Shown one piece after another: positions 1 to 46,340 of a DNA stretch of 64,000 bases. The position numbers and the translations under genes are program-made. Each line of letters begins with the position of its first letter. Within the stretch, counting starts at the first letter, position 1. The notes beneath the pieces are model-generated. The model saw only the letters and a list, made by a program, of their open reading frames with translations, was not told the origin of the DNA and searched no databases. The stretch is from assembly GCA_001643675.2 (NCBI GenBank), contig LSRY02000043.1, positions 558,001 to 622,000 on the forward strand, read 5' to 3'. The DNA comes from Monocercomonoides exilis PA203. Taxonomy: Eukaryota > Protista > Preaxostyla.

Positions 1-916
1 AATCGGAACTATTAAACTCTGCACGGCAAAGGCGGATTTTGATCTTCATTTCAAGGGAAATAGAATAACCATGTTAATAAAGACACTTCAATGAACAATT
101 ATCTTTTTCGAAACTTCATCTTTCGTGTTTTTAAAATTCTCTTTCATCTAATAACCAATCATTTCATCAAAACTTAAAAGCATTTCTTTTATCCATCTCA
201 CTTCTTTCAATTTATTCCAAAATAGTCTTTTCATCTTCATATCTCTTTCTCTCTGCTTCCTGTAACTTTTTTTCTTGTTCCAATCACATTTTTTTGGTGA
301 GCACTTTCCCACTTCTTCCATTTTCTTTTAATCAACATTATCGCTATGTGATTTGAACAAATCATCTTTGTTAAAGTCTCTTGTTAATTCCATTTCCTAT
401 TCTCACAATCAATATGCCCAATTATTTTCATCAAAAAACCGAAAAGAAAAAGCAAAAACTAATATGAATCAAAACTAATAAAAAAAATATAAACACCTAT
501 TCATGTGCAAGAATGGCTTATTTTTCTACATTTTTGCGTTGAATTTGGAACTTAATTCATTCTCTGAATCGTTAAATCATTAGCAAAAATTCATTTCTGT
601 CAAATAACATTAACGAGGTAAAATTTTAATACAAACGCAAAACATGTGAAAATATTATTAAATTGAATACTCATATCATATCAGCGATATAGAAATAAAC
701 ACCTCTGAAAGTTCAAATAATCAAAATAATTAAACAGCATCTGAAAATTATTCTTAGGGTTCATCAAAATTAATTTTTATTATTCCAAATATCTTTAAAC
801 AATTGTTCAATGAATGGAAGATTTAAATATCGCACTTTGAAGTTGCCCTGAGCGACGTGAGAAAAAAAGTTTAAAACGTATATCACCAATTTTCTTCTTG
901 AATATATATATATATA

Positions 917-1274
917 GGGTGGTCCTAAATATTTTGCAAAAATTATTAAAAATGGGAAATTGAAAATGAATTATCAAAAAAATTTCGATAAAACTGAATT
1001 CATTTTACATTTATCAGTTTGAAGGTGATCAAATATATGATAAGCTTCAATTTGTTGCAGTTTGGAGCTTCCGAATAACCGAACAATTCATTCCTTGAAA
1101 ATGAATATTTTTCTAAATTTTTGAACTTATATGATTTTTCAAGAATTTGATTGATGGACAAGACGATTGCAATTAATTACAACTTATAATGGTAATTATT
1201 TTTATGAAAGATTTTTTATCATATCAATTTTTGTGCCATAATTAATAATTTTTACAAAATATTTAGGACCACCC
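917..1274. mobile_element. 358-bp MITE inserted in a (TA)n tract
   Basis: TIR GGGTGGTCCTAAATATTTTG(C/T)AAAAATTATTAA (33 bp, 1 mismatch) at both ends, flanked on both sides by TA dinucleotide runs, so the TSD could be TA or TATA. No ORF. Confidence 0.9.
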
Positions 1275-2539
1275 TATATATATATATATTTTATCAAATG
1301 ACAAAACATATTTAACATATCAAATTGATGCAAAACTTCCAACAAATGCCTCCATCACAACATAACAACCAAGAGGCGGACCCAAGAAAACTTGTTGTTA
1401 CAATTGAAAATCAAGAAAGACTAATACACCTTTAATTTCCGATAGTGCACAATCAAATGAAAAAATTTATGAAGGGAATGAAGTTTTGGTTTGTTCAAAT
1501 TATCAACAGACTTTGCTTCCTCGAAAATCAAAGTTTATTTGAAATCAAAAGTTATTTCAAATAGTTGGGAAAAGAAATGAGAAGACAAAAAAAGATTTGA
1601 ACAGTCTGTGAACGAAAAATGACAATTCAAATATTTAAAGAACTGAAAATGGATGTGATCAAAATGAGCGGAGTGATGATGAATTTTGCATGAATGAAAG
1701 TGATATAAATTTTGATGAAGAACTGTTGTCAAATCCACAACACAATTGTTCTTTTTGGATGAGTGTTCAAAACAATAAAAGAATTAAAGCAATAAGTAAA
1801 AATCAGAAAAAGGAGAAATCATTAAAAATGAAAAGAAAATAATAGTTGGAGACCTGAGAAAACTTTCAGTTGATTTTTCAACGATTCAACATTTTGAAAT
1901 CAACACCTTAAAAATTTAAATGACATAAAAACACTTGAAGAGAGGGCATAGGTGTAAATTGAACCACTTTTTGTGAGCACTTTTGAAATTTTTTAACTAA
2001 ACGCCGTTAATATACATAATTAAACAAAGCGGTTCAAGGAGTGAAATTTCGAAATTCGATCATGAAAATTTTCAAAAAAATTTTTGATATTTTGCAACCC
2101 ATAATATTTTCATTGAGATCAAAAGAATTAAAAATTCAATTTGACAACTTCACAAAGTTTAAAGCAACTTTGCAATGAAAAGGCCAAAGAAGAACTAATT
2201 TTTTATTGTTTGTCTTGGAGTATTTTCACTTTCACAGTTTTTAATACAGTTATTATTAAATTATTCAATATTTTAATTATGCATTTGTACACACATAAAT
2301 GTGGACATCGTGAGTTTTGCAATTGCAAATACCTAAAATGATAAACATGATGTTTGCATATTAATTTTTTGTTTATAAGAATATCACTGTTTTTTCATTG
2401 CTTTTGTATTTGTTTCTATATTAATGTTAAATATTTGCAACATAAACTTGTTTATCATTGGAATTGTGGACATATGTTTAAGTATTTATCTATTTCATTA
2501 TCAGTTTTATTCGCAGGCGTTTCAGTGATGATTGAAGGA

Positions 2540-3476
2540 TCAAAATGAAAGAATGAAAGGAAATGATTAAAGTGAAATGGATGGAATGACCAAAGGCAGA
2601 TGCGTGCAAGGCGGGAAGGTGTGTAGCGGGGATAAACATAATGCAGCTGAGCTCTGCAATCAAAGTGTTTATCAGAAGGCATGAGAGTGAAATAGCAACG
2701 ATCGGTGTGTAGAAAAATGTTATAATAACAGAGAAAGGAAAGACAGTGAGTGTTATTGAGACGAATACTCTTTCTTCTTAATCAGCAACGCTGTTCACTG
2801 TGATGAGCTGGCAGTTGGAGTCGAAATATTATTGCTTGCTGAAATAACGGCAAATCCCAGGTCTGAAGAAGGTCATCCAATAAAATCATTCGTACTTGTG
2901 CTGGCACAGCCACAGCTGCCAATAACTGCCGTTGAGATGAAAAAACAAAGTTCTGCTGCAGCCCCTCGTCTCCACGCTGCACCCCTCCCAATCTCCGTTT
3001 CCATTGCTCCCATCCCCTTCTCCGCTGTTTTGGCAAACCCAGGCACCCGGATCATCGAAAAATTCTTCTGTGGCGAAACATCCCCAGCTACGCCCTGCTG
3101 AGAAATAAAAAACGAAAAAAAAGACATGCAGAAGGTGTAACACGATAACAGCTCCCTCGTGAGGCAAACAAAATGGCACACCTCCACCAGCCTGGCAGAT
3201 TAGATAACATTCTGAAAGGAAACGGTGACACCCACCGACACCAAGCTGCCCCACATGCCCGCTCACGCAACCCCACCACAACACATTTCCAGCACAGCGC
3301 GTAGAAAGAGGCATCACATACATGTTCCATGAGCATGAACAGCCCTCAGATAGATGAATCGCTGCCCCATTTCCCCGCCAGCTCAGAGACTCTGCAGCCG
3401 TATAACCTAAAGGTTCATATAACTCCCCACGAGGATGCTGTACTCTATATCTGCACCATACAGAATCGTTTTTCAA
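2540..3476 (-). pseudogene. GC-rich degenerate host-gene fragment (cargo of element A), Cys/Gly-rich surface-protein-like
   Basis: Abrupt rise in GC inside an AT-rich element; broken reading frames with GNGAAIHLSEGCSC-type segments (ORF 2886-3476). Confidence 0.45.
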
Positions 3477-3899
3477 AAAGCTCGTTGATTATTTTGGCTA
3501 ATTATTGATTTTCATTTCACATTCACAAACTTTTTATTAACGAATTCATTTCTTCAAAAATATTTCAAAAAAATGCTTTATGTTGAACTTAAAGTTGTCT
3601 ATAAGAGCTGATTTCCAAAAATTCAATTCATAATTTTCGCAAATGTGTTAATTTAGCTTGACTGTTTTCTAAATAAAATGCATACTTTGCTTCTCCTGTG
3701 TTTTTCTTGTATTCATCAACTCTTTTCAGAAACATGGATGAAATAAAAATAGCGCTGCAAAAAAAAGCAATTAAAAAAACAAAAATGAATTGATAAAGAT
3801 AATTTGAAAAAATCAACAGCAATGAAATAAAAATTCAAAAAAATTAAGATAAACGAGTTTGTAATTAAGAAATCAAAGATTTCGTAATCTGATCAAACA

Positions 3900-4770
3900 A
3901 ATGAAGTTTCTTTGAATATTTACTGCATACCACTTTCAATTGCCTCCTTGTCTTAACCTCTGAGTTTTCTCCTCCTCTTTATCCTTCTTCACTTCTCGTT
4001 CAGCAAAGCTCTATTGCTTCAAAATTCCCCTTGACCATCTCAATCTCCTTTCCTCGAATTTCTGAAAGCAAAATCTTACAGCCTCTATCGTCAATTGCGT
4101 CTGCTTTTTTTTCGCTGCTGTTTGATGTGGTTTGTGATCATCCATTATTACCTCCTCTTTCATTTCTTGCCTCGAAAAGGCTCATCCTTTCCTCAGCTTC
4201 ATCTTCATTCCCCGCAACCTGCCACATATCATCCTATCTCTTTTCACTTCTCCCATTTTTTACTCTGTTTTCTATTCTGTTTCTTCTGAAACATGCAGTT
4301 GCTTTCAATTCTATCATTAGAAACAGATACTTCAAAGACATTCCTCCAATTTTTACATAAAGATTTTTTCGCATGCAAACACTCCTCAAAACCTTTTTCT
4401 TTCCCGCAGCAACTTCTTCACTTCATGACTCTTCTTTTTCTTTCTCTTTACCCAACATTCCATAGATCCTAAACTCAATGATCAAGTTCCTGTGTGACTA
4501 ACAATCTTTGTCTAACAAGCTATTTCTTCATTCTCTCTTCTTTCAACATTTCTCGCTTCAAATTCACTGTGCATACAATCATCTCGTCAGTTGTTCTTCT
4601 TCTTTCCATGTTCCTCCAAGATGCATAGAAAATGACAAGGAAATAATCATTCCTTTTTCAGCATCTTTAACTTTAACTTTGTTTTTGTTAGATCCATCAA
4701 TTCACTTTATGTGTCATCTCTTTCGTCCAGAATCGCTTCCGTCTTTTGAAAAGCAGCGTTTAATTCAACT
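3900..4770 (-). pseudogene. Degenerate charged/coiled-coil host-gene fragment (second cargo of element A)
   Basis: Minus strand reads as E/K-rich codons (e.g. VELNAAFQKTEAILDERDDT*SELMDLTK) with many stops. Confidence 0.4.
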
Positions 4771-5285
4771 TCTATTTTATCAATTGTTTATTAAGGAAAT
4801 AAAAATAAGAATGATAAATATTTTATAACTATTTTTTAAAAATAAGAAACATTGATAAACAATAATCCAAACGTATTTCATTAATAGCTTTATTTGATTT
4901 TGCTTGATTAACAACAACTATTATTGAGTGTACGCTATTTATAAATCCAACTATTTAATCAGTTAAAAATTATGATATAAAGGAAATATAAGAGGAAAAT
5001 ACTCCAAGACAAACAATAAAAAATTAGTTCTTCTTTGGCCTTTTCATTGCAAAGTTGCTTTAAACTTTGTGAAGTTGTCAAATTGAATTTTTAATTCTTT
5101 TGATCTCAATGAAAATATTATGGGTTGCAAAATATCAAAAATTTTTTTGAAAATTTTCATGATCGAATTTCGAAATTTCACTCCTTGAACCGCTTTGTTT
5201 AATTATGTATATTAACGGCGTTTAGTTAAAAAATTTCAAAAGTGCTCACAAAAAGTGGTTCAATTTACACCTATGCCGAAGAGAG

Positions 5286-6115
5286 TACAAGAGATTGATT
5301 GAATTGGAGTGAATAATACGGAAGAGTTGAAACAAGAGAGCTTCGACAAATAAATCAAACAGCTCGTCCAAACATCTCCCCAGCACCGAATGCTCAAAGA
5401 CACCGCTTAGATGCACCATCGAGATTATCCATTGCATCGAGAACAGATAAGAAAGAAGTTGTTTTGCCACAAAGAAATAAAAGTGTTCCATTAAAAGAGC
5501 AGTCAGAAAGATCTCACATTTTGGCATATAAAATGTCCACTCAATTTTGCCATTGTTTGAAAAATTATGCTTGGGCTCTTGAAAAAGTTCCTGTGTTCGG
5601 CTTTTAATAATACTTGGGAAGAGCATTATGGTACTCAATGCAAACAATTCGAAGAACCATAATTCCATGTTTATAAGAACTTTCAGAATTTGAAACAAAC
5701 GAAATTGTTGATGAATAAGAAAGACGAATTGTTTGAAGAGTTTTGATGGAAACACATAACGCCAAAGATCAATTGTATCAAAAGGAGAACAAGGATGTTA
5801 TTTTGAGAAAAGAAATTCTGAACGAATCACACAAAAAGGAAGCATTGATTGTGGGAGATTTTGATATAATTCTGGAATCGATGCAGGCCTAAATTGTGGA
5901 AAAACTCAGAGAAGCTCCTTTGTTTATTTTCGCTCTTTCTACAAATGCATAAGCCCACTCATGTTCGAATAAAATAATGAAGGATATTGTTCGTGTATTT
6001 GCAAAAAAAGAACCTTCTTTTGCTAAAGAAAAATTCAATTTAGCATTTGGAAAAGGAATAAAAGGAGATGACCATTGCGTCATATTGGAAATTGATTTGT
6101 GTTTCAAACATCATT
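5286..6115 (+). pseudogene. Degenerate ORF interrupted by element A; weak EEP/APE-nuclease-like motifs
   Basis: Manual translation gives ...EALIVGDFDII... and ...GDDHCVILEID..., echoing the GDFN and SDH motifs; several stops. Similar coding-like sequence at 1325-1944. Confidence 0.3.
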
Positions 6116-6159
6116 AAAACTTCATTTAGCGGTTTGAGGAATTCTTAATTCAAGAACAT

Positions 6160-9100
6160 GGGTGATTTTTTTTGACTTCATTAAAAAAGATCAAAAATCG
6201 AAAAAATAAAATCTCTTGTGGTATTTATTGATCAAAGAGTTTAATTGAATTTTTGAGTTTTTAGCTTTTTAAACTGTAATATATATTTGTTTTATTGTTT
6301 TATTTAAAAAAAAAAAACATACCTTTGTGTTTTGAAAGAAAAAGAATTTTTGATCAAGTTTAAAAAAAATATTTTGAAAAAGAAAGAATAATCAAACTTT
6401 TAAAGGAAAATAACTATTTCCAAACAAGTTAAACATAACTTTATAAAGTAAAAATTTGAAAAAGAACATTCATAATCGCACGAATACTTGAAATTTGATT
6501 ATTTCAAATAAAATCCAATGAGTTTTTTGTTTATCCAGCTAAAAATTAATCACCAAGTTTCAGTTACAGCCGTGCAGTTTAACGGACTCATCAAATGGAA
6601 ATTGTGTTTAAAAGGAACCAACAATCAATCAGAACAACTGATTCAATCTTGTCATTTCTTTTTTTATTCTTCGAATAAAAAGCTCTTCCCACTTCATTTT
6701 CAATTTATAGCTCCTCTTCCTTCTGTTTCGAATCAATTTATCCAAATATTCCTTTTGAAAATACCGCTGATATTATTCACTTTCATTTTCAGTACTTTCT
6801 GCTCCATTCTTCTCGTTATGTTCATCAATTACTCTGACAACACTTGCATATCTCCGAAGAAACACGTGCTTTTTATTTTTTTCACCAAGTTCATCTGCTT
6901 CTTTGTTATCCAAAAAGTGTGCGAAGGAGCATGAAGAATGGATGTGCATTTTGTGTGTGAATCCCTTGTCACTTCTGTGAAAGAGCCCTTGTTCGCCTTC
7001 ATGGGAAACATCACTCAGAAAGAAAATTCGGCTGTTGGACATGCAGAACAGAAGCAATTGGAATTTCTATTAATAAATCTTTACCAACGGGCATACAGCT
7101 AACAATGAATATGTGGATAATCATCTTGGCAACAAAGCAACGCATTGCTGGCTATCAAAGACGCCCTGAAAGAGCGTGTTCAACCCGATGGGCTTCTGAA
7201 GAAGGTGCAGAACATAAGTTCGAGATTTTTGAGTGAGCTGATTTGTCTGTAAATTGGTTGTGTGATAACCAAATGGAAGAATGGAGTTTAGATAAAGTTG
7301 AAGAAGAAAAGAAAGCAACAATTGGAGAAAGTGTGGAAGTTCGGATGAAGTTGAATTGAAGCGAAACGATTAATCCTCGTCTTTTCAGTCATAGAAAATC
7401 ATTATTATTTTATTCACCACTCCTCAAATATCTTTTTTTCTATATTTCTAATTAAATTTCATACAGACGATACCATTTGTTGTCCAAAGGAAAACTCCTT
7501 CTTTCCTTTCTTTAACTTTCTCTATTCATCATTAAACAGTTTTTCTCAAACGAATATTTGCCCAGTCACATTTGTAACGATTATCCAATTAAACCACTCC
7601 CTCTTCTCCTTCAACATTACAATCACATTCAACAAGAATAACTTTCTCTTCTTCTTCTCCAACTTCTTCATTAACTACTTCCACATTTATTTCTTCTCCT
7701 TCATCTCCTTCATTTTCGACTTCTTCTTTTATGAAGATTAATTCTCATTCAAAATATCCAAAATATATCTATCCTTCTCTTTCCTCTTCTTCTCATTTGT
7801 TTTTGTCTTTTTCTTCTTCCTCTTCTTCTTTATCTTTTAGAGAATAAGAAGAAAATTATAAAGAAAGAGAAATATAAACAGAAAGGAATATATCAAGACA
7901 CAATTCTTCTCTTTCTTCTCTTTTTCTTCTTCTCCCTCTTCTTCCTCTCCTTTCTTTCAACACATTAGAAATTAGTTCTTTATTCTCTTTTCTTTCTCAA
8001 TTTGCACATTCTAAATACTTTCTCATTTCGCTCATATGCTGAATCTTCACTCTTCTGCGTCTTGTTGAAGCTTTGCGGAATTTTTGTTTCTTTTCTTTTG
8101 CTTCCTCCTACGATAAATGAGTTTCACTTTTTGTTGAATTTGCTTCATCCAGTATCTTCGCTTCTCTCTGCTCTTATTTTGCTAATGTTCCATTGTTCTC
8201 ACACCCGCTTTGCCTCTCTTTTCCTTTTTCTCATCTCTCATCAATATGTCTTCCACATTTATCTCATCTTTATCAAAATCGAATCATATTTCTTTTTCTT
8301 CTATTTCTCATCTTTATCATCATTATTATTTCTTTTATCATATCTTCTTTTTCCCTTCCTTCACTTCTTCTTTTTTCTTTTCAATCTCATCCTCCTAACA
8401 GATTGTTAAATTAGCTGCATTTTGTGTTGTGTTTCAGAAATATGGCTTCTCACACCTGGAACAATACCTTCCGCGAATATTTTTGCAATGCAGGGGTCAT
8501 CTGCAGAAAGTTGCTGTTTTTCCGAAGCAAAAGTTGATAATTGATCTGGTGATAGGGTTGCAGGAGGAGAATATCGAAATGGAGATGTTTAACTTGTTGC
8601 TACGGTGAATGTGCTGGACAACTAGAAGACAACGACCTGATGCTTCAGCTGTGCTCGCTGGACTTGATGGTGCGGAAAATGCGAACAGCTTTGCTGTTCT
8701 GGCCAAGAGAAAGAGAGTCATTTCAAATAAAAATTCCATGTTGAGTGCTATTAGTGAAGTCCATTTCGTTGTTGCCTAATGGGTTGCTGAAGAAGCCATG
8801 TTGCAGATGCGAAATACTTCTGCTTATTGAGCATCACTTATGAATCGCTGAAGAGCTATTCGGAAAACTGTTGTGCTTCCAAGGGAAAATGGAACACCGC
8901 TCTGGGCAATGGATTTTTTGGCTGTTACACTCGCTGTACTGCTGTTTCACTTGGATATGTTACTGCAGAGTGGATTGAGCAAGATGGCAGTAAAGAAGGA
9001 GTGGGTCATGCTGAAGTGGCTTCCCTGCTGATTTGGAACAGAAGAAGCAGAAGAAGAAGGAAGTGTGTACAGCAAGGGATCCGCCAAGGAGTCAGTAGAA

Positions 9101-11170
9101 GGAAGAGTGGGACAATACGAAGGAAAAGCGACAGCTGGTGAGGATGCAGTTGTTGAAAATAGCTACAACAGCGATGAGAAAGATGTGGCGAAGTGAACAG
9201 GTACAAGATTTCCAGAGGTTCAATCGACTTTCACGTCAGCAAGGGAGATATGGGTGTCGAAGAAAAAGGAGGCAAAGATTCAGGATGCGTTGCTGATGGA
9301 AGGTGCGATGTGGAGTACGGCTGTGAAGAGTGAAGCGCAGGAGGCAAGCGGGGAGCATCACGGCGGGCAAAGGAGACGATGTCTTGGTAGACGAATATCT
9401 GCTGGGCGCGTTAGAAGGTGATGAAGGGGAGAAGTTCGATATCTGCATCGAAATCCAAATCAAGATCCGTATGGAAGGAGTCGGAACAACAGTTTGAGGT
9501 GTTTGTATCGAGGGAGTGCTGTGTGAAGTCGATGGAAAGGAGGGACTCGTTGATCTGGGCGGGGATGGAGGAGTACCGGAAAAAAACATCCTTTCCGAAG
9601 AAGGCGTCTTTCAGGCGAAGTGGAAGTTGAGGATGGAGAAGGGGAGATGGGGGCCGGCTGTGGACAGCTCGAATCCTCTAAGCTCGTCGAGGGCGCTCAG
9701 GTTCACGCTGGGCATGTTCCAGTTGAAATGATCTGCATCCATTTCTGCCTTCATCTAACTCCCTGACGCAAACACCTTTCTGCCCTTCCACGTATTGCAT
9801 CTGGCAAACATCACGTGCTCGAGGGCAAATTGCCTGGTGGCATCTGCCTCCCCCATCAACACCCCTCTGCCCAGGCCAGAGCTTTGTTCCTGCCTCCATT
9901 ATTTGAAACAGTGTCTTCCTTGAAGCACGAATCATGAATCAACAGGACAGCCCCTGCCTCCAGCTTTGTGGCAACACATTCTTCTTTGTCCTTCGTTTGG
10001 TTCCTCATTTCCTTCTCTGCTTCGCATCTTCCCACTCCCACAATCTTCACCTGCTCCCCTTCTCAACTCGACTTCTGTATATGATCAAAAATCATTTTGC
10101 TTCCCTTCACAATGCTGTAGTCTGTGCACTCTGTCAGTAAAAATATGTAACAAACCTTTTCGCCCAGTATTTCGAAGTCGCTCAGTATCAAACTTTCAGA
10201 TCCGAGTATTATCAGCTAGAAGCTCAACCTCTCCTCATCTCCAAGTTGCAAGCTGCGACTTGTGTTGCACTATTCGTATGATTGTTTTGTCTTTGAGGCT
10301 GAGCAAGCGGTTCGATGAACCAAAAGCTGTCTAAATTATGGATCAAATTATAAGTCAGAAGAATATTTATCATCAATTGATACGGAGTTGTTGGTGAATT
10401 TAGAAGATGAATAATTGTTTCAAAACAATAATTGAAGAAAGGCAGTGGGCGAAGTTATCAGTCATACAACAGATGGTTGAACCTAAAAGGAGGAAGTGGA
10501 AGAAGTGTCGTTGAAGAAGAAGCTTGAGGAAGATGAGAAGGAAGAAGAATGGATGTCTGCGAGGAAATCATAAATATGCTTAGGAAGTTTAAAATTTATC
10601 TGAAAATGAACTTCTTGAATTGCATTGCCTTTTCCTTTGCATTTTTAAAACAAAAATTTTCAATAACATTTTTTGATCAGTTTATTTGGAAATTCATTTT
10701 ATTTAGTAAAACAAACACAACTCATTGTTTTTTTGATAAATGTTATTCACAATAACACATTTATAATGCAATTGATTTTGAAAATATGATATATTCAGCA
10801 AATTATTATAAAATTTTAAAAACAAATTTCAAATTTTCTTTTCAGAAATTTTGTTACACATATTTTTTCGAAGAAGAAGAATGATTATGTTTTTGTGATA
10901 ATTGTTAATTAATTTTTTAAACTGGCAAACTTATGTTTTGTCTGTGTGTTGAAGTTTTGATATTTTTTGGATAACATTTTCTATTTTTTGAAAATATGAA
11001 ATAAAAAGTATAAAAAACAAATTCAAATCTACAATTAATTAATAAATATAAAATATTAAACTACATTTTCGAATAATATATTAAAAAAACTTTCAAATTA
11101 ATACAACCCTTATAGAAAAATTTTCTTGATCAAACGTCGGAAATTTTTATGATATCAAAAAAAATCACCC
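6160..11170. mobile_element. 5-kb non-autonomous element with short TIRs, 4-bp TSD and mosaic cargo (Sola-like ends)
   Basis: Left end GGGTGATTTTTTTTGACTTCAT; right end, reverse-complemented, GGGTGATTTTTTTTGATATCAT. ACAT directly flanks both ends (6156-6159, 11171-11174). Same terminus as the GGGTGATT MITEs elsewhere in the window. Confidence 0.8.
6650..10560. pseudogene. Mosaic of degenerate host-gene fragments inside the 5-kb element
   Basis: Blocks with distinct composition and purine skew (pyrimidine-rich 7480-8400, GC/purine-rich 8430-9720, switch near 9730), many short broken ORFs, no intact gene. Confidence 0.5.
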
Positions 11171-14080: not shown

Positions 14081-14668
14081 TGATGGAAAGAAAGTGAGTG
14101 TTTGTGTGGCGCTTTATATTCTTCTCCTGTTTCTAATAACAAAGTCAAGAAACATCCATTGTATTCATTTTTTTTTTTGATTGCGGTCTTCGACAAACTC
14201 ATCACAATCAACGCCTGCTTCATGGTGATTGTGTGGAAGGAAGAAGCAGGGAAGATGGCTTCCTGCTCCACTCTTCCGCACTTCGACTCTCCACTCTGCG
14301 CTTGTTTTGATCAGAGCAAGTGAAGACTCATCAGCAGTCCATACGACGGTATTGCGATTATCGATAACAAAACCAAAGAGGTTGTCAAAAAAGTTGTCAG
14401 TACTCTGTTTCTCACAGTGCCAAAAGTGCAGTCCAAGGCTAACGAGTTCATTTCGTATGAACTATCATATGACCTATCAACTCAACATGCTTTTGCTTCA
14501 TCTGACTGTTTATACAACAAAGGGTATTCTGATAATGTTTGATTTTGTTAAGCTCAATCTCAATCTCTCTTTCATTTACACTTTTTGGTTCATACCTCTT
14601 TTGCTTTATTCTTTGACTTCAATGAATTTATTTTCTTTTTTTCAATTTTCTGAACCATAAGAAAAAAT

Positions 14669-15011
14669 ATGAACATAAATAAAACTGAACATTCATATTT
14701 TGCTAAGCCGCGTTCAACAAAAAGTTGGCAAGAAAGCTTGATACTAAATAGAATTAAGCATTTAGATCCTGACGATCCCGAGGGGTGCTTGATGCACTTT
14801 CTTTTCAACTTCAAAAATGGAAAACCCTTTCGGGAAGCCATCGAAACCATTTTCCAGAGTTTGTTATTATTTCATAATTTTATTGTTTTATTTGTCATTC
14901 ACTTATTTCAAATATTAATTGATTTCTAACAATTTTTTATTTCTAACAGAGAAAATTGAAAAAATTGAAAACAATCTATCGAAATATTATAAAGTCACTT
15001 CAAAAAAAGAT
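14669..15011 (+). pseudogene. 5' part of the Sola-like transposase gene, separated from the rest by element B
   Basis: Coding-like sequence (...IYRNIIKSLQK) runs up to the TSD and resumes at 19039 (DRVNLLSFLSSVLTMKELSSFGFAVSRGEYYYSR), with an apparent 1-nt slip in the A-run. Confidence 0.55.
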
Positions 15012-18000
15012 GGCATAGGTTCAAATGCGTTCCTTTTGCAATTTCCCTTTTTAAACGCTCAATTCATAACGAAAAATTAGATAATAATTATTAAAAAACT
15101 TTTTATGGACCGATTTTTCGAAAAAATTTTTCTTGTTGAAAAAAATAATTTTTGAAAAATGACCCATAAAAACATGAATTTCATTAAAAAAATATTCATA
15201 TTTCATAGATAATGGAATTTTCACACATCAAAAGTGTTTGCATGATTATATAGACTTATTTTATTTGTTAATTTTCATTAGAAAAAATATAAATCACGAA
15301 CAAAAAAATTAATTAAATATCTTTGATCTAACCCACAATAAATTTATTTATTATATGAAAAGTTAAATATGCTGTTTGAGCAGAAATCGAACTCAAAAGT
15401 TTGTGATTCGCTCACTTTTATATGTTAATATAAGTATATAATGATATGCGCACTAGTTTTATATTGAAAACTGATTTTATTATAAGTGACACAAACGCAT
15501 GCATTTTTACTTCCATGTTGTTAAGCTGAAAGATTAAAATTTCAATATTGGTTGCAATGGAACACAAAAGGTGTTATATGATTCATTCTGTCAACAAAAT
15601 ATTCATTTTTTTTTTTTCAAATATTTTCTATTCCTTTGATATGTCAATGAATTTTTATATTAGTCTCGATCAAAACATGCTTTTATGAATAAATCTTGCA
15701 AAAATTAACAATAATCACACAAAACAATTCACTATTGTATTATATAAACAATGAACTTTATAAAAGTTTGTTTTTTCTTTATAAAAAAGAATTGTTTGAA
15801 TGAGATTTATTTAACTCTAACAGTGAATTTGATGTTGTGATATGTAAAAGCGAGGAAGATCCATGCTTCACAATGTGGAAAGGGATGGAAAACATAAAAG
15901 GCGAAGAAGGAAATATAACAATTCAGATTGAAGGATCCACAGTTATTCAAGATTCATTCAACTAGTCCAATTATCAGATCAAAAAGTCACCTTTGATGGG
16001 AGAATAGAATTTGAAAGCAATATTGAATTTTGAAAAGGCAATTGGAAGTCAACTGGAATATTTCATGGAAAATGATATTCATCTTGAATTGTTCAACATC
16101 CAACTTCATCTGACATCGGGATTTGACAACTCAGCCAAAACAATTATTTCAAACAAAGGAGGAGAATTGGTGATACGCGAATGTTCATTCCATTCAGAAG
16201 CAGTAGTTAACAAAAGATTTGATTGTGTATTTGTGGATGTGATTGGAGGAAGTGTGGATGTGAAAGATGAAGGATCATTCACTCAAGAATGGCTTGTTGG
16301 ATGTTCGAGTTCATTGACAATGAGCCGACTTTCATTTGTTGTGAAAGGTCAGTTGAAAACGAGGAGAAATTCATTCATTCATTCAACATCAACAATCAAC
16401 ATGACGAACTGTTCAGTCTCATTTGAGAGTGGGGAATTGATCGATGGAATGATAGGATACAGCATCATTAAGATGACAGGAGGAAATCTGATTGCTGATG
16501 GATTTGTGATGAAAGAGTGTGTGCTGACGAAGTGTGTGAGAGAGAGAAGCACAGAACGCGGAGGGATGAAGATGTTGATGAAGAGAGGAGATACGGATGT
16601 GAAAGGGAGTGGGTGTTTGTTTGGGATGTGTGTGTGCTCAACAGGGAATGGAAGGGGAAAATGGATGATGATTGATGCACTTGATTTGAATGGTGAATGC
16701 TCCAACACGAAAATGCCAGCACTTGGGCTGAGATTGGAGAACATCCGATTCATGATGAATGATGCGTTTGTGGGGAAGGATGTGTTCATCAAGTGCCACT
16801 CGATTGGGAAACAGGTCAATAAAACGCTGTTTGAACTGAACTTCAGCCAGGAGGCACTGAAGGGGGAGAACTCGATGTGTGGGAGCGATGGAGAAGGGAA
16901 AGTTGATGTTGATCTGATGCTGCTGATTACGTTCAATTATTCTTCATAGGTGTATGTGTGTGTGAATGGGAGTGGCAACAGGCAGTGTGGAGCACATAAC
17001 GGTCCGTGTGAGAGCATTGGAAATGCTGTGCAACACATTCAAAAAAGTGTTGTGAATATGATTCTGATTGATGGGGAAGGGATGATGGGAGAGGGATGCG
17101 TGATTGGGGATGTGAGGATGGTGTCGATGCGGAGGGAGAAGGCGACAGTGCATTTTGAGGGGAAGATGGAGGAAAGAGGAGAGAAGAGGAGAGGAGCATG
17201 ATGGTGTTTGTGAATAAGAGTGTGGCGGAGAGGTGTTTGTTTGTGTTAGGAGAGGCATTTGAAGGGGTTGAAGAGAGTGTTTTGAAAGAGAAGGATGAGA
17301 GATTGGAGATTTCAGAATGCTTTTTCAACTCAACAGCAATGGATCTTGTGATGAAAAGCATGATTCTTCATGTCGAGAGTGGAGAGTTGAAGATGAGCGA
17401 AACGTTGTTCAGTGGAATTCATTCAGCTGTGCCACTTCTGTCATTCTGTGGAGAATCGGGTGCATCAATTGTTGAAACCCGAATGTTGAATATCGAGTGT
17501 GAGGGGGAAGTTGTGAGAGTTGGGGGAAAAGCGAAGACAGAGATGAAGGAAGTGAAGTTTGAGAATATCTAAGTAGCTTCTGAATGAAGCGTGTTGAAGA
17601 TGGATGGAGCTGAAAGGGGGTTGAGTGTGCTGAACTGCTCTTTTGCTCAATGCAAGTGCACAAACAAGAGAGGAAAGATGATGAGGATATGTGAATGTGT
17701 GGATGTGAGAATTGGATCGAGTACGTTTGATGGAGAGGAAGGAGGTGAAAGAGAAGGAAAGCATGGGAATGAGGATAATGGAAGAGGAGAAGAGATTTGC
17801 AGATTGAACGAATTTCTTTTTGATGTTGTGAAGAGTTCTGTGATGATGAAAGATTCTTCATTGTCGAATTCACAAGAAGGTGGAATAACAATGAGCATAG
17901 AAAGAATTAGAATTATAACAGAAAACATTCAACATTATTTATTGAGACTTCTTCATTTTGCAGAAACTGCAATAAACTTATTTTTTTGTTGCAAATTCTA

Positions 18001-19030
18001 GGTTGTTATTGTTTTTAATTGTTTTGATAGAGCTGCATGTATATAAATATCTTATTCATTTTTGCTTGATGTTTTATTAACGATTTTGAGGATAAAATGA
18101 TTTTAATATTTTTGAAATAGACACGATAAGAATTATTTCAAAAGCAGTTTCACAATTTGAAATATTTATTCGCTAAACTCGCTTTTCATTGTTTGAATAA
18201 AAAACATTTCTATTTACGTTTGTAACATGTAATTATCAACGAAAATATGAAAAGAATAAAAAAATAAACTTATAAAATAAATTCACAATTATTCACAATT
18301 CAAAATAATTTAGAGACTTTAAAAGATTAATAAAACCAAATAATTTCCGGTTTCATTGCATTTAAAAAAAGAAATTCTGAATTAAAAGTTAAAAAAATGA
18401 AAGAATATGTTTGTTTTTCAAAGATTCAAATAAACTTAACATTGTTTATTCGTTAGGAGGTTTTGCTAATATTTTTTTGAACCATTGCAATCCTCTTTGA
18501 AATTTAAATTTTGTAGCCGTAAAGCTTTCAAGCTAAAAATAACATGTTTATCTGTTTGAAATAAGGAGCTGTTTTCAATATAAAACTAGTGCGCATATCA
18601 TTATATACTTATATTAACATATAAAAGTGAGCGAATCACAAACTTTTGAGTTCGATTTCTGCTCAAACAGCATATTTAACTTTTCATATAATAAATAAAT
18701 TTATTGTGGGTTAGATCAAAGATATTTAATTAATTTTTTTGTTCGTGATTTATATTTTTTCTAATGAAAATTAACAAATAAAATAAGTCTATATAATCAT
18801 GCAAACACTTTTGATGTGTGAAAATTCCATTATCTATGAAATATGAATATTTTTTTAATGAAATTCATGTTTTTATGGGTCATTTTTCAAAAATTATTTT
18901 TTTCAACAAGAAAAATTTTTTCGAAAAATCGGTCCATAAAAAGTTTTTTAATAATTATTATCTAATTTTTCGTTATGAATTGAGCGTTTAAAAAGGGAAA
19001 TTGCAAAAGGAACGCGTTTGAACCTATGCC
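15012..19030. mobile_element. Non-autonomous long-TIR DNA transposon with host-gene cargo (Merlin-like ends), element B
   Basis: 460-bp inverted repeats 15012-15471 and 18571-19030 starting GGCATAGGTTCAAA(T/C)GCG, nearly identical; exact 8-bp direct repeat AAAAAGAT at 15004-15011 and 19031-19038; no transposase inside. Confidence 0.96.
15800..17900 (+). pseudogene. Captured, degenerate fragment of a large Cys/Gly-rich repetitive (beta-helix/surface-protein-like) host gene family
   Basis: Consecutive ORFs 16011-16949, 16950-17201, 17198-17572 and 17591-17900 of similar style (CSF, GGxxxI, CGAHNGPCESI motifs), separated by single stops or frameshifts; no proper start or end. Confidence 0.75.
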
Positions 19031-19038
19031 AAAAAGAT

Positions 19039-21270
19039 CGCGTGAATCTATTATCATTTCTTTCTTCTGTTTTGACAATGAAAGAACTGTCAAGCTTTGG
19101 TTTTGCAGTATCTCGGGGAGAATATTACTATTCCAGAGATAAGGCCAAAGTCGAAATGGATGGCTCAAGTCCAGAAGCAAACAATGGTTTCGATGAATCA
19201 GGTATTCTATTTATATTATTTCTTTCGTTGAATGATTCATTCACATTTTCATGTTATATGTTATAAGCTGAGAAAGATTACAGCCAAGTTGAAAACTGGC
19301 TTAGTCACCACAGTTTCTGTAGCTGCGAAAATGGAAGAAGAGTGAAAAAAAGTTGGAAAAATTGAAATATTTCGTTTATTTTTGAATGAATTTTTTGCTT
19401 TTTTGATGATATGAATATAATTTTTATGATTTTTGTTGCAAGTTCATATAGTTCCTCATCTTCATGTAAGGATCAATCATCAAAAAGTCATCAGGATTAC
19501 GAGAAAAAGAATCATGCATCTTCTTTTTCCACATGTCTCAATGATTTGACCGAAACGTTGAATCGAGCAATTTATAACGAAAATAAAAAAAGAAAAGATA
19601 ATAATGTTGATTGTGAACTGAAAAACAATAGAAAAAGAAACTTAAAAAAAAAAGGAAAATGATAATAACAAAAAGATAAAAGAAAATACAATAAATGCTC
19701 CATCGATTATTCATTCTTCGACTAGTGGAGAACATGAATATCAAGAGAGCGACAATTCACTTTATGAAAAGGATTGTGAAAGAGAAATTGAAAGAAAAGA
19801 TAAAGAAAAGGAAAAAAAAAATGATGATAAAAAAGAACTTGGAGATGATAAGAAAAAGAAAAAGAAAAATCGTGTATTTTTTCCAAATGAAAAGAGAATA
19901 ATTGTAAAAACTAAAAAGCAATTATTCAATGAAATGAAGAATGATATCGAAATTAAAATGGCTTATTCCACGTTTTGTAAAAAAACGAAGAATTTCAAAA
20001 AAGCAAAAAGGAGGACTGATTTGTGTGATGTGTGCGAGAGAGGAAATTTTTTGGAGAAGAAAGAAATAGAATTGAAAAAGAAAAACTTGTCTTTGAGTTT
20101 TGAAGAAATAGAAGAAAAGGAATTAATTGAAAAACATAAAAAAATGGCTCATTGCCTTAGAAATTTTTTTTTGTTATTTATCAAGAAATTGCATGAAAAA
20201 TAATGAAGTTTCAATAATTATGGACTTCAAAGAAAAATGGGCATTGCCCATAATGATGAATGAAACTGGTCGTAGCTTTTGCAACAAAAAGCAAATTATT
20301 CAATTGTGTTTTACTGTTTTTAAAGTTAATAAATTTAACATTTTGGAAAAACATTGTTTTACTTTTTTTTCAGAAATTTTATCTCATGATTTTTGTTTTG
20401 TTTGTGAATGCATAACTCAATTATTAAAATTTGATTTATTTGAAAATGTTAATTTTTTTCACTTTTATTGTGATAATGGCCCTCATATTAGGAACTCTAA
20501 TTACCTTCATTTTTTATTTTCAAATTCTTCTCCTTTTTTTTGTAATAAAAAATGTTCTTTATCTTTTTTTACTAAACATCATGGAAAAAATGATTGCGAC
20601 AGCGAATTTAATCATTTGACTAATTTATTAAATAATAATTTAAATAATACTGTTTTAAATACTTTAGAACATTTAATTTCTTTTTTTGCTCTTTAAATAA
20701 TTCCAATAAATTGTTAAATAAAAATTCCAATATTTTTCTCTCCAATTTTTCTTCTTTAAATAATGATTTTTTTCAATATTTAGTAATTAATAACGATTCG
20801 GCTGGAATGGAATTGGCAACTTTGCAAATGAACAAAGAGAGCGAAAGTATTTTTAATCCAAAACATTACTTTTAAAAGTGTGATGTTTTCTTTACAATTT
20901 TTTTTTAAATAATTTTTTTTATCATAATTTTTTTTTTAGACACGAAACATTATCAGAAACAAATTTGGACCAGCTGGTAATATTTGGTATGAAAAAATAT
21001 ATATTTTTTGAAAAAAAAGAAAGAGAATTATTTGCTTCTCCGATAAGCTCAGAAAAATTTGAATTTTAGAAAAAAATTAAATACTCGGAAAAATTAATAA
21101 AAAATAAAAAAATTAGAAAAACATTCGAAAGAAAAAATGAAAAAGACAAAGAAACAGAAGGAAATAATAAAGTTGGAAAAACAGTGAAAAAAATTTAAAA
21201 GAAAGATTATTTATGATAGATTCTGTATTTTTTAATAGATATGAGAATTTTTCTTCTTTATCAAAAAATG
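19039..21270 (+). pseudogene. Sola-like (DDD) transposase pseudogene
   Basis: Motif order AYSTF..K.FKKAKRRTDLCDVC...H (Zn-finger-like), IMDFKEK, SHD, FYCDNGPHIRN, FFTKHHGKNDCDSEF; frameshift between ORFs 19934-20203 and 20127-20696; further stops. Confidence 0.75.
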
Positions 21271-21281
21271 ATTTTTTATAT

Positions 21282-21549
21282 GGGGGAAAATACGGACTTT
21301 CAAGCTTTTTTTGCACTAGGCATTAAATATTTATTTCACTCATAACTTTATTTCGCTTTCTTTGATTTCAAAAAAATTTTGATTTTCATATCAGCAAACA
21401 AACCTAATTGATGCTTCAACAAAATGTTTTGTGTCTTTAAAAGTATTTCAAAAAATGGACCCATTTTTATTGCATTTTTAGATTTCAAAAAGTTAATGAA
21501 AAGTGCATAATTTTTCTATGAAAATGCCTGAAGTGAAATATTTTGCCCC
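21282..21549. mobile_element. 268-bp MITE (GGGG ends), TSD ATAT
   Basis: Ends GGGGGAAAATA and TATTTTGCCCC; ATAT on both flanks; diverged inverted copy at 22973-23239. Confidence 0.85.
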
Positions 21550-22013
21550 ATATAGCAAAACAGCAGATATGGAGCGACAAAAAGAAGTTATGAAAGGTAT
21601 GTCAGAAAAAGTTAATTTTCCAATTTTTGATAATTCAAATAATTCTCAAAATAACAATTCATTTATATTTCCTTTTTTAAATTCTTATTCTGATTTTTCT
21701 AATTCTTTTTTGAATGAAGAAAGTGGCGCAGGTATGACATTTAATTCAAATAATTCATTAAATATTGATATAAATAACAACAGCATGGAAATTGATTTTT
21801 AAAAATCTTAAAACAAAAAATACAAAGAAATTATTTTTTATTCTTGCTTATCTAATGATAACAAATTAAATTTGTTTGAGGACGTGACTGAATCCTTCCT
21901 GTTCTTGTTTTATTTTTAGTAAAAAAAAAGATTTGCAGGCTTTGGATCCAGATTCAGTCTCCCAGGAGAATAAAAAATAATTTCTCAATAATTCACAGAA
22001 AAATAATACATAT

Positions 22014-22266
22014 GGGTGATTATTTTTGAAATCACAACTTTTTTCGGAGTTTCGATTTTTTTATTTTCGTTTTGTCAATTTCTTGAAAATTATCATTCGA
22101 GTATTAAAAAAATTGCAATTGTTCAAAAAAGCACTCATTTGAGCTGCATTAATGTCATTTTTTTTGTAGACGGTGTAATCACTTTTAAATGTTCACTGAC
22201 AAAAATGCAAAACAAATTTTCAAGTCAAATTTTTCAACGAAAAAAATTGATTCAAAAAATGAACAC
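22014..22266. mobile_element. ~255-bp GGGTGATT-family MITE, right end decayed
   Basis: Left end GGGTGATTATTTTTGAAATC preceded by ATAT; degenerate right end GATTCAAAAAATGAACAC followed by AAAT at the expected distance. Confidence 0.6.
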
Positions 22267-22407
22267 AAATACATATTCATATTTGTATAAACAATCTTAG
22301 CGTATTCAGAAATCAATGTTTATATGAAAGGAAAACAAAATTTTAACAGAAATTATTTTGTTGAAATGGAAGATATAAAAATTATTTATTATGTGATTAA
22401 TATTTTG

Positions 22408-22475
<68 letters not shown>

Positions 22476-22972
22476 AGAAAAAAAAAAAGAATGTCTTTTT
22501 TTAAAATTCAAAATGTTTCCAAAACAGAAAATGAAACTTTTACCATTGAAAAATCATCTTTAAGAAAAAAATAATGAACCCACAATCTTTAATGACAAAG
22601 TTGCTGACAATGATTCTCTGAAAATTGTTCACAATTGAAAAGACATTTATGGAAATGCGAATGAGAAGATGTTGAAAACAATTGATACAACATCATTACC
22701 AGTTTCAACACCTCTTCTTTCTTCTCCTCGATATTTTTCTGAAACGCCAAGCCGTTTCAGTCGTGGATTGAGAACGTTTGGAGAAAATGTTTTCAATCCA
22801 TACATTCAACGTGGAATTTTTTCTTCAAGAGAAACGGACAAATCTCATCGGTGGTCGTTTGTTATGTATATTTTGTTCTGTCAAGCATATCATTTTGAAC
22901 CATTACCGCTTGACCCAAATGCAATGTATGGATTTGTGAAACTTCTTGAGATTGCGTTTGATTATTCATTTT

Positions 22973-23239
22973 GGGCAAAACATTTTGTTTCAGGCATTTT
23001 CATCGAAAAATTATTCACTTTTCATGAAATTTATGAAATCAAAAAACACAACAAAAATGGGTCCATTTATTGACATTCGTGAAATGTTGGAAAACTTTAT
23101 GATTCGATTTCAATGATGCCTGTTAACGGGAATGAAAATCAAATTTTTTCTGAAATCTGATAAAGTGAAATAAAGTTATTAGCGAAGTTATTTTTCAATG
23201 CATTATGCAAAAAATGCTTGAAAGTCCGTATTAATCCCC
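22973..23239. mobile_element. 267-bp MITE, inverted diverged copy of 21282-21549, inside the recombinase gene
   Basis: Reverse complement aligns along its length (AATACGGACTTTCAAGC, ATGGACCCATTTTT, ATGAAAATGCCTGAA); TTTT on both flanks. Confidence 0.8.
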
Positions 23240-23363
23240 TTTTTAAAAATTTTTCTTTTTTTACAAATTAACGAATGCATTCATGTGAAAAAACTGAAAT
23301 GGAAATATATTCTTATCAAGGCTTTTTCCTCCATTTCAATAAAATTTCTTTGAGTGAAAAGAT

Positions 23364-23603
23364 GTCAAAATTTTTTTGAAAAGTTCCTTTTGTTTAATTT
23401 TCAAATAAAGAAAAATTTTCATATACCGATCAAATTTCTGTTCCCACTCACGAAACTACTCAATAACAAAAATAATAACATTGCCAAGATCTTATATTCA
23501 TGACAGAGAAATTTGGTGAGTGTGAAAAGAAATTTGATCGAAATATAAATTTTTTTCTTTATTTGAAAATTAAACAAAAGGAACTTTTCAAAAAAATTTT
23601 GAC
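23364..23603. mobile_element. 240-bp fold-back MITE (GTC ends), TSD AGAT
   Basis: ~90-bp imperfect inverted arms beginning GTCAAAATTTTTTTGAAAAGTTCCTTTTGTTTAATTTTCAAATAAAG; AGAT on both flanks. Confidence 0.92.
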
Positions 23604-25008
23604 AGATATTTGTATATAAAAATATTTTTTCATGAATTTTGAACTATTATTGTGAATTTATTTTTTTCGAAAAATAAATAAATAAATACACTTGACTGTT
23701 CTTAAAGTTGGAAATCATAAGGTACTTCAGGATGTGAAGTCCAATCCTTTGAAGTCAGATGCTTGGATATGAAAAAACGCATGCGTCCAGACGTGTCTTC
23801 GATCATTAAGGAAGCTTATGGAGCGTTAAATACGGACTGTTCATCCTCTTGTTGCTAAGGGCTTCATTCTTTTTTGCGGAAAAGTATGTTTCAACTTATT
23901 GACTAGCATTATGCATGTCATCACTCCTTCAATAAAAAGAATAAATAACGAAAAAATAGGAAAGAAGATAAATAACAAAACAAACGCAGAAATAAATGAG
24001 GCAATAAGAAGTTTAAAGAACGATAAAGAAGTCAATAAAAAAGGAAAAGAAAGGGAACCTGCGCTGATCACTGACGTCGCTCGCATTGTTCATAAACTCC
24101 CCGATGATCTGGATTCTAAATATTTGGAAGCTTCACTTTATCTAGTGGGCGTTCAAACTGGAGCAAGGGCAATTACGTTATCAAGCCTAAAAATGTGTGA
24201 CATTAAAAGAGTTATACAATCGAAAGAAACAAACAAACTTCTTGTTACCTTTTGCTACAACCGGACAAAAGGTTCTTCGCATTGGGATCATCATGAACTA
24301 TTGAAGTATAGAAGGAGAGTTGCAATGAAAACAATGCAGCATTTTTTCTTTCGATGCACTTGAATTAAAGCGTTTGTGTATGTTTGAGTGAGTGGATGTT
24401 GAAGAAAGAGGAAGTTGAAAATGAAATTCCTGTTTTGTGAATCTTTACAGATGTAATGAGAGAGAGGTTCAAAATGAAGGCCGAAAATGCAGGATTCTAT
24501 CGGAATCTTTTCTGCTTCCACTCTATACGAAGTGGATTCAGATGCCCCGCCCTCAATAAGAGTGGAAAGAATGATGATTCGAAGAAGGCTGTGCTTGAGA
24601 AGACAGCAACGATGTTTGTTGTTACCTGATAAACTACAAACAAACGAATCAAGATAAAAATAAAAAAAATAAAAATTGTAGAATAAAAAATACAGGATAC
24701 AATTAAATGAAATTTAAACTATTATATTGGGTGTTGATTTTTGAAATGAAAAAAGTCTTTTAAAGTTTGATTTTTTATAAATGTTAAATACTTAACAATT
24801 TATCAATAAGCTAATGCAATAGATGAACTGAAAACAAAGAAATCAGGAATGGGATTGTTTTTTTTTTTTATTATTTATATTCATTAATTTGGAAACAACA
24901 AAAATTTTGTTATTCAAAAATTTTATCGAAATAAAATCTCTTTTTTTTTTAAAATTACATACTCGGTTTTTCATAGCGGTTCGATAATAAACAGTCACAA
25001 AAAAATAT

Positions 25009-27640: not shown

Positions 27641-27946
27641 AAAAAAGGATAAAAATCAGAATGGCCTTTAAGAATTGCTATTACACACATTGGTATTTCA
27701 TTCATTCAAAAAAATGTTCACATATGCGAGCGGAACAACTGACAAATGAAAATAAAGAAACAAATTAAGAATACAGAAAACAAAATAATTTATAATTTTT
27801 GAAATCATTTTTTTTATATATGAAACAAGAAAGAATTTTGTTCTTTATTCATGGATAATGTTCCCTTGGTTCAAATTTATTTAAAAAAATTCGCATAATT
27901 ATTATTCTTGTTAAAACAAACTATTCTTAACAAAAAAGAATTAATT

Positions 27947-28186
27947 GGGTGATTCTTTTTGAAAAGTCACAAACGTTTAATTTTCAAATATATCAAAAAT
28001 ATCATATCTTGATCAAATTTCGGTTCCCGCTCATGCAACTTCACAGGAATGTGTTAAATGGCATTGTCAAATTATGTCCTCCGCTTTGGTAAAGTTGCAT
28101 GAGCGGGAACCGAAATTTGATCAAGATATGATATTTTTGATATATTTGAAAATTAAACGTTTGTGACTTTTCAAAAAGAATCACCC
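27947..28186. mobile_element. 240-bp fold-back MITE with perfect 95-bp arms, TSD AATT
   Basis: 27947-28041 is the exact reverse complement of 28092-28186; 50-bp spacer; AATT on both flanks. Confidence 0.95.
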
Positions 28187-28940
28187 AATTATCTATTGCA
28201 AATGACAATAAGCATAATGGAAAATCGTTAAAATATTGTCGATTGAAGAGAAAATTTTTTGTTCACAAGAATTTAATCAAGTTTGATTCTTTTCAAAAAT
28301 GACTATAAAAAAATATGCAAGATTGAAAATAGTTATTCGAAAACATTAACAAACAAATTATGCAATCTTGTTGCACATTTGAAGTGAAAGTTATAACCTC
28401 TGTGAAAGTGTGAAAAAGAAATGAAATGAAATAATTTTTTATTAAGGTTTATTGATTGAAAATTGTGCTGAAGTCTTTTTCGAAAATTAAAAATTGTTGG
28501 TTAGTGTTTTTTTCCTTTTCAAAACAAATTTCAAAAAATTGTTTGTTCCTATCAAAAATAAAAAATAAAAAATAAAAAAACTGACGGGCACTGATTGACT
28601 TGGTCTCGCCATTTCCAAGGTGACGCAGATGTTTATTTTTTTCATTATTACAAGTATAGGCTTATGGGTGGAACAAAAGTCCAAAGGTGAAATATTTCGT
28701 CCCATTTGCTTTTCATTCGTTTCGATCAGGTTTCATTTTGGTAATTTTAATAATAATAATTATAATAATTATAATAATTATAATAATTATAAACTGAATC
28801 ACAAGTTAATAAATCTTGAAGGCCAGAAACGACATCTGATCCTCTTTTTGTCACAAAAAACTGATCACTCCTATTTGAAATAGAGCAATTATTACAAAAA
28901 ATACGCATTTCAACATTTTGTATAATGAAAGCAAACATAT

Positions 28941-29166
28941 TGGATAATTCTTTTTGAATAGTCGCAAAAGTTTAATTTTCAAATAAAAGAATAATTTCAT
29001 TTTTTCATCAATACTCTGTACCCACTCATGCGATAACACAATTATAGAAATAATATCATTATTTAGGTTTTTGTATCCATTAAAGTGAAGTTTCAAACGT
29101 GGGAACAGAAAATTGATGAAAACGTGATATTTTTTTATTTGAAAATCAAACAAAAGGAAATTTTCG

Positions 29167-29230
<64 letters not shown>

Positions 29231-37932: not shown

Positions 37933-37981
<49 letters not shown>

Positions 37982-44100: not shown

Positions 44101-44521
44101 ATCTCTTCTCCATTTTCGTCTCTTATAACAATTCGAACTTTCCTGAACACTCTTTCATTTCCATTTTCTTTTCCATCTTTTTGTCTCAAACGGAAAATTA
44201 TTCTTTTTTTCTCTGGGACGACCACAGGATGAAGACGATAATACTCTAAATAACAATAATTTTATAATAAAAAATATAAGTAGCTTTGCACAAAAAAATT
44301 CAAACCAATTGCGTGGCTATTCACAAGGTTAATAAACTTTGATGTTGTTGGAAGAGGAATTCCATGCTTTTCAGAAACGGTTCCAAAAGCATTCACCAGA
44401 TTTGAAGGAACTCCGTTCTTATATAATTCCTTCAATGTTTCAGTCACATCACCGAGCTTATCCTTAAAAGCAGGAGGAATCTGCTCTGGCTTGATTCCAC
44501 ACTTTGAAGGCCATTCAGCGT
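38178..44521 (-). CDS. Large protein: acidic/charged N-terminal region, EEERKRK coiled-coil repeats, C-terminal armadillo-like repeats (5' exon unresolved)
   Basis: 2015-aa open frame. A 60-nt GT-AG intron at 44246-44305 joins the upstream exon in frame (HAI-EYYRLHPVVVPE). The last ~550 aa show ~42-45-aa helical repeats (GALVNLS, GVLCAMS, GALAQLV, GGITDL). Confidence 0.88.
41750..42340 (-). repeat. Coding tandem repeat, 8-aa unit KEEEERKR (single-alpha-helix/coiled-coil type)
   Basis: About 20 or more degenerate 24-nt units in the translation. Confidence 0.9.
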
Positions 44522-46265: not shown

Positions 46266-46340
46266 ATATAAAAATCCAAAATCTCTATTCAATGATAAAC
46301 AACTCTTGAAAAATCAACACTCCGAAAAAAGATACGATTT

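Follow-up and report, generated by a model that had tools for sequence, protein, structure and literature searches.

A probably Merlin-mobilised Pack-type transposon in Monocercomonoides exilis carries a decayed mosaic of receptor-like kinase ectodomain pieces

The analysed stretch of DNA from Monocercomonoides exilis, a gut-dwelling oxymonad protist that lacks mitochondria (the window, 64 kb), contains a 4,019-bp DNA transposon at positions 15012–19030, which is inserted in a transposase-like gene, and a second element with the same type of ends (Table 1). The 4,019-bp element is bounded by two terminal inverted repeat (TIR) arms of 460 bp, in which the sole mismatch is located at position 15. 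The next mismatches appear from position 461 on, and the arm similarity decays beyond 460 bp, out to ~560 bp. The ends begin with GGCATAGGT, and the left arm has a GC content of 23%. The element is flanked by an exact target site duplication (TSD), AAAAAGAT. When direct repeats of 2–13 bp were compared in the two flanks, a match was obtained only at a length of 8; this 8-mer has a frequency of 1.6e-4 within the window. The interior is composed of a 2.17-kb cargo (15762–17935) that matches a host multigene family and of non-cargo DNA that sums to less than 1 kb.

No transposase was identified in the element: all six reading frames, translated in full with each stop rendered as X, lack any Pfam family. 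Pfam likewise detected no transposase among 103 scanned open reading frames (ORFs) of the window, including no MULE transposase; weak matches under the curated cut-offs were disregarded. The paired arms and TSD, an empty site, the host gene fragments and the lack of a transposase confirm that the element is a real Pack-type non-autonomous TIR transposon. The earlier note on this DNA had called a Pack-type transposon with an exact TSD, arms differing at one base and no transposase, and all four calls are borne out.

Table 1. Features of the 4,019-bp element, its target gene and the second element.
Feature	Position	Strand	Basis and remarks
Second element, same end type	1945..5277	.	283-bp perfect arms, same first 9 bases, 8-bp TSD GAAGAGAG
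Target gene of the insertion: multi-copy, broken, DDD-type transposase-like	14600..20700	+	Frame across empty site; conserved Asp
TSD, left copy	15004..15011	.	AAAAAGAT; single copy at empty site
Left TIR, 460 bp, starts GGCATAGGT, 23% GC	15012..15471	+	Arm comparison; multi-copy family in read contigs
Decayed arm extension (to ~15570) and left internal AT-rich DNA	15472..15761	+	Block 15635–15748 common to other copies
Cargo piece 1, subfamily A ectodomain	15762..16265	+	~924 to 755 residues before membrane anchor; 75–88% aa identity; 3 stops
Cargo piece 2, subfamily B ectodomain	16254..16520	+	~1199 to 1110 residues before anchor; in-frame junction common to P0001, P0073, P0075, P0076
Cargo piece 3, subfamily B ectodomain	16506..17935	+	~667 to 200 residues before anchor; 3 stops, frameshift near 17187
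Right internal AT-rich DNA and decayed arm extension (from ~18473)	17936..18570	+	Diverged relatives in read contigs
Right TIR, 460 bp	18571..19030	-	Arm comparison
TSD, right copy	19031..19038	.	Flank repeat comparison

The empty site is observed in read contigs from four public runs, all of one sample. In two of the four runs, position 15003 is joined to position 19031, so that 4027 letters are skipped and 8 letters fit both sides of the joint. The flanks of the element have paralogs in the read contigs that are ~6–9% different, which makes a paralog the probable source of the empty form, although excision or allelic polymorphism may account for it instead. One exact contig runs through the left junction and includes 30 letters of the flank, a single letter fewer than the bridging rule requires; another crosses the inner border of the right arm. 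It is scarcely credible that the structure arose as an artefact of assembly or as an inverted duplication by chance. Assemblers can produce long near-perfect inverted repeats, and none of the listed read contigs spans the whole 15012–19030 stretch, but the exact TSD, the empty site, the exact contigs at these two borders and the continuation of a reading frame across the empty site argue for a genuine insertion.

Without the element, one frame of the target gene is open for 106 codons across the insertion site. The gene bears an intron. A word search for it returned 0 of 99, yet a full HMMER search with its domain (20205–20693) yielded 359 relatives; among the top 50 of these, the three Asp residues are conserved in 50, 50 and 49, respectively. 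None of 24 relatives reaches a Pfam cut-off; judging from its motifs, the gene may be Zator/Sola-like. No arms of an outer element were found around it. The DDD-type transposase-like gene is the target of the 4,019-bp element and not its mobiliser.

The window also harbours several other repeats and frames. A small MITE-like element with inverted ends is located within a TA-dinucleotide run (909–1282), and a ~240-bp palindromic MITE-like family, 66–83% alike, is found at 23363–23604, 27942–28191, 28946–29172, 46026–46269 and 46340–46581. Two older elements (21263–23258 and 45112–47040) display decayed inverted arms (76% and 84%, respectively) and no clear TSD. Three long poly(A) tracts (22409–22473, 29166–29228 and 37934–37980) possibly represent retroposed insertions. 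A 177-aa frame (23830–24360), for which Pfam gave only weak unrelated matches, resembles a tyrosine-recombinase or integrase fragment in its motifs. Three long low-complexity ORFs (38178–44261, 52730–56794 and 57282–62717, minus strand; 2027, 1354 and 1811 aa, respectively) have no Pfam match.

The second element resembles the first in its ends but differs in its cargo. Pfam searches of its ORFs and read-through frames identified no transposase. Its cargo is unlike that of the 4,019-bp element and is GC-rich, with 46% GC at 2500–3500 and 37% at 3900–4760; a 200-aa cargo frame matched none of 410 candidates, which comprised longer proteins only. The TSD is 8 bp long in both window elements. The motif GGCATAGG occurs four times in the window, compared with 0.39 expected, and all four occurrences are at the outer ends of the two elements.

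The arms of the 4,019-bp element belong to a multi-copy family. In run X2, the summed contig depth on the arm is ~700–8,200 and mostly above 2,000, compared with 90–100 for unique contigs; although depth is not copy number, this excess suggests that the family comprises tens of ends. At six positions (15045, 15047, 15244, 15411, 15440 and 15443), more than 95% of the run X1 depth has another letter, whereas the two arms of the element agree with each other. Because the two arms carry the same private changes, they have likely been homogenised against each other, as best explains this pattern. Regeneration of matching arms by recombination is described for maize Mu (PMC10401008). The near identity of the arms thus does not date the family, and arm homogenisation cautions against dating such elements by arm identity.

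The cargo source is the tyrosine kinase-like family of M. exilis, reported as the largest gene family of the genome (PMC6759080). A 313-aa cargo frame gave 72 matches among 1,725 candidate proteins, all named Monocercomonoides exilis. A precomputed kinase domain (PF07714) is present in 32 of the 72 matching proteins and a membrane-anchor-like segment in 42. The anchored proteins fall into subfamilies A (n=37) and B (n=5), which are ~28% alike. Language-model features, which provide a lead only, liken a parent ectodomain to beta-helix, Chlam_PMP and DUF1565 clusters, and no solved-structure match was found for a parent protein. The evidence supports single-pass receptor-like kinases with a beta-helix/Pmp-like ectodomain as the cargo parents, in agreement with the surface-protein cargo proposed earlier. 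In four parent receptors (P0007, P0014, P0038 and P0047), only the C-terminal 40% of PF07714 is matched and a motif scan of the kinase parts showed no HRD- or DFG-like motif; these four may therefore be pseudokinases. Loose fragments of the receptor-kinase family are also found outside the element, at 9390–9889 (minus strand) and 6941–7084 (plus strand).

The cargo comprises at least three non-collinear pieces from subfamilies A and B. It contains ectodomain only, without the N-terminus, membrane anchor or kinase, and has accumulated six stops and one frameshift; piece 1 is more decayed at its 5′ end. Between pieces 2 and 3, ~420–470 codons are lost in frame. Both junctions are in frame and lie on short look-alike motifs, as seen at the protein level only. 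The best amino acid identity of the pieces is 75–93% and switches between genes, so that no single parent emerges from the protein comparisons, one of which was limited to lengths of 549–2000 aa. Judged from its sequence, the cargo is a decayed pseudogenic mosaic and not a fragment of one gene. The earlier note had described ~2.1 kb of a multigene-family member inside the element; the host family and approximate size stand, but the single gene fragment gives way to pieces from two subfamilies. The note had also suggested that such elements drive amplification of the surface-protein families, which is not supported by a pseudogenic cargo of this content. The element copies gene fragments, not working receptors, and perhaps shuffles ectodomain segments.

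The 3′ end of the cargo gives a hint of its earlier state. The last 40 codons of piece 3 lean to subfamily A, with a mean of 61% to A compared with 42% to B over 30 aa, and B aligns collinearly too. The cargo is as long as the collinear A span, and a second rise in read depth is seen at 17819–18019. The cargo possibly began as one A fragment that later had its central part exchanged; at the protein level, an A-type 3′ end is weakly supported.

Mosaic sequences of similar composition are present among the gene models of the host. Of 76 family models, a count from which 150 target-gene relatives in the chimera output were left out, eight pass from a short A leader into B, and none of these A-to-B chimeras has an anchor. 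The first cargo junction is found in four of the 76, on two different contigs and again always without an anchor; three of these (P0001, P0073 and P0075) retain the stretch that is lost between pieces 2 and 3. The chimeric models include MONOS_17547, 9278, 16878, 16464 and 13946. In the read contigs, other copies share block 15635–15748 and the decayed cargo start at ~88%. Together, the chimeric models and the read-contig relatives fit sister elements without proving them. A contig of depth 3.9 that is 98.6% like 17993–18337 was not taken for a young sister copy. The opposite switch, from B to A, is observed in six of the 76 models (P0010, P0042, P0051, P0060, P0062 and P0068), one of which is anchored; MONOS_18046 is an anchored chimera of this direction. 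Segment shuffling may reach full-length receptors. The start codons shared by the chimeric models were rejected as evidence, as pure A models begin at those methionines too. Given the B-to-A models and these common starts, the receptor-kinase family also recombines outside elements.

These models bear on a tentative alternative, according to which the element itself is no gene shuffler. The cargo may have been taken in one step from an already chimeric host pseudogene, or a pair of small elements lying side by side may have formed a composite and moved along with the intervening DNA; for Pack-CACTA, capture between adjacent elements has been described (PMC6379663). By accession, the chimeric models form local groups on two contigs, and the B-to-A chimeras suggest that the mosaic may predate capture; the common methionines of pure A models make the shared starts weak evidence for sister elements. 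The alternative is opposed by the relatives in read contigs, which share internal AT-rich blocks as well as the decayed cargo start, by two different A-to-B junctions that come after one common short A leader, by the single outer TSD pair and by the restriction of GGCATAGG to the four outer ends in the window.

The termini of the element narrow the choice of superfamily. Termini of hAT or P elements are of the CA/TA type and are accompanied by 8-bp TSDs; to our knowledge, neither group starts with GG. The ends of the 4,019-bp element lack such CA/TA-type termini and start with GG. Merlin elements are defined by GG ends, 8–9-bp TSDs, arms of 24–462 bp and a DDE_Tnp_IS1595 transposase (PMC8101967). 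The terminal 5′-GG-3′, the 8-bp TSDs of both window elements and the 460-bp arms lie within this definition, although the arms of the M. exilis Merlin families measure only 23–29 bp. More than 100 Merlin copies in seven families, all with 8-bp TSDs, are reported from Monocercomonoides, and in the published alignments six of the seven families start with GGCA at one or both ends and three with GGCATA (PMC8101967). The Repbase rule demands that ends align to a classified family over bases 1–11 with at most one mismatch (PMC4455052); against families F1–F7, the ends failed this rule, with 4–5 mismatches to the three closest ends as counted by eye. A Merlin (IS1595-like) transposase is the probable mobiliser in trans. 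The Merlin assignment of the earlier note is likely, as the GG ends and the 8-bp TSD fit it, but is qualified by the Repbase comparison and by long arms that also fit MULEs.

Ends of the same type are present in three contig records of the supplement to the Merlin survey, each visible over 400 letters. In LSRY01001580.1_1_6496, an inward-facing end is located at ~337; compared by eye, it agrees in 28 of 32 bases with the 4,019-bp element and in 13 of 13 with the second one. The Merlin hit of this record would end near base 1496 if the flank is 5 kb and the contig exceeds 6,496 letters, a length suggested by neighbouring numbers, and the spacing between end and hit would be near that of autonomous copies. 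The README of the supplement describes coordinates as approximate and not all contigs as checked, and the records near LSRY01001580 include very short hits; the contig is regarded as a candidate autonomous partner only, and no autonomous element with these arms was observed directly. The other two records show no partner: the related end lies ~4 kb from the Merlin hit in LSRY01001541.1 and faces outward in LSRY01000583.1. Exact end patterns had no match in metagenome contigs or in viral contigs.

A Pack-MULE, that is, the same type of passenger moved by a Mutator-like transposase, is rather unlikely. The long arms and 8-bp TSDs of the 4,019-bp element do fit MULE/MuDR elements, whose arms commonly reach hundreds of bases and whose TSDs span 8–11 bp, some being 8 bp (PMC6446971). 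Gene capture is best known in MULEs, arm regeneration by recombination is reported for maize Mu (PMC10401008), and MULEs are present in Trichomonas (PMC6446971). However, both window elements have TSDs of exactly 8 bp, a length common to all seven M. exilis Merlin families, and the GGCA(T) start agrees with that of M. exilis Merlins, whereas the Trichomonas MULE group has TSDs of 9–11 bp and arms of 20–38 bp, and Monocercomonoides has no occurrence in the main text of that MULE survey (PMC6446971). Membership of some other superfamily, described or not, that combines GG ends with 8-bp duplications is improbable. The ends match no classified family by the Repbase rule, and 35% of the M. exilis genome is unclassified repeat (PMC8767320), but the adjacent DDD transposase, as the target, provides no such partner.

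Overall, we favour a non-autonomous DNA transposon that carries a broken mosaic of receptor-kinase ectodomains and is likely mobilised in trans by Merlin. A transposase encoded elsewhere would bind the GGCATAGGT ends and excise the element, which would reinsert with an 8-bp stagger, here into the gene of another transposon. The cargo would have been assembled as gaps were repaired with template switching between genes of the largest host family. The first cargo junction would predate this copy, with the internal deletion arising later, and the two arms would be homogenised against each other. A broader proposal, that long-armed Pack-Merlins are widespread in the M. exilis genome, recombine receptor-kinase ectodomain segments across subfamilies and feed them into full-length receptor genes, is doubtful at present. 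If it is true, transposon cargo accounts for part of the annotated expansion of the kinase family and for part of the unclassified repeat (35%).

Within M. exilis, the element can be set against the tyrosine kinase-like family itself (PMC6759080, PMC8767320). This family is the cargo source and the largest family, and it overlaps unclassified repeats, whereas the cargo keeps only pseudogenic ectodomain pieces. The unclassified repeats that overlap kinase genes in the assembly have been suggested to be mis-called gene families (PMC8767320). The 4,019-bp element shows that the reverse also occurs, as it is a real transposon carrying gene pieces, and some repeats that overlap kinase genes may be transposon cargo inflating gene counts.

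No report of a gene-capturing Merlin element, or of any gene-capturing element in Monocercomonoides, was found among the papers listed by the literature searches, those on Monocercomonoides and transposons being screened by title and abstract start; Repbase, the 2004 Merlin paper and survey supplements may hold cases. Pack elements, which the earlier note placed mainly in plants, are also known in animals (PMC8277862). The animal Pack-TIRs (Tan et al. 2021, PMC8277862) resemble the 4,019-bp element in that fragments are proposed to be captured at microhomology, when gaps are filled or templates switched, and in that multicopy cases spread by transposition. Their median cargo is 224 bp, compared with 2.17 kb here, and the main text of the survey does not contain the term 'merlin'. 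Pack-MULEs and the plant Pack-TYPE elements (CACTA, hAT, PIF and Mariner; PMC8903248, PMC6379663) are similar in being non-autonomous, in combining arms with a TSD, in containing coding fragments from multiple loci and in enclosing GC-rich cargo between AT-rich ends. In contrast to the plant elements, the present element resides in a protist host, has likely Merlin ends and draws its cargo from one very large gene family; neither 'merlin' nor 'protist' occurs in the main text of PMC8903248.

Among the closest known systems are also the Merlin families F1–F7 of the same host species (Lopes et al. 2021, PMC8101967), which share the GG start, the GGCA start in six of seven families and the 8-bp TSD. 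These families are 1.4–1.5 kb long, encode DDE_Tnp_IS1595 and have 23–29-bp arms, whereas the present element is 4 kb long, has 460-bp arms and contains host cargo without a transposase. Should the Merlin assignment prove correct, the gene-capturing TIR elements, which have been catalogued in plants and animals, would gain a further superfamily. The element works like a Pack-MULE and is likely a member of Merlin.
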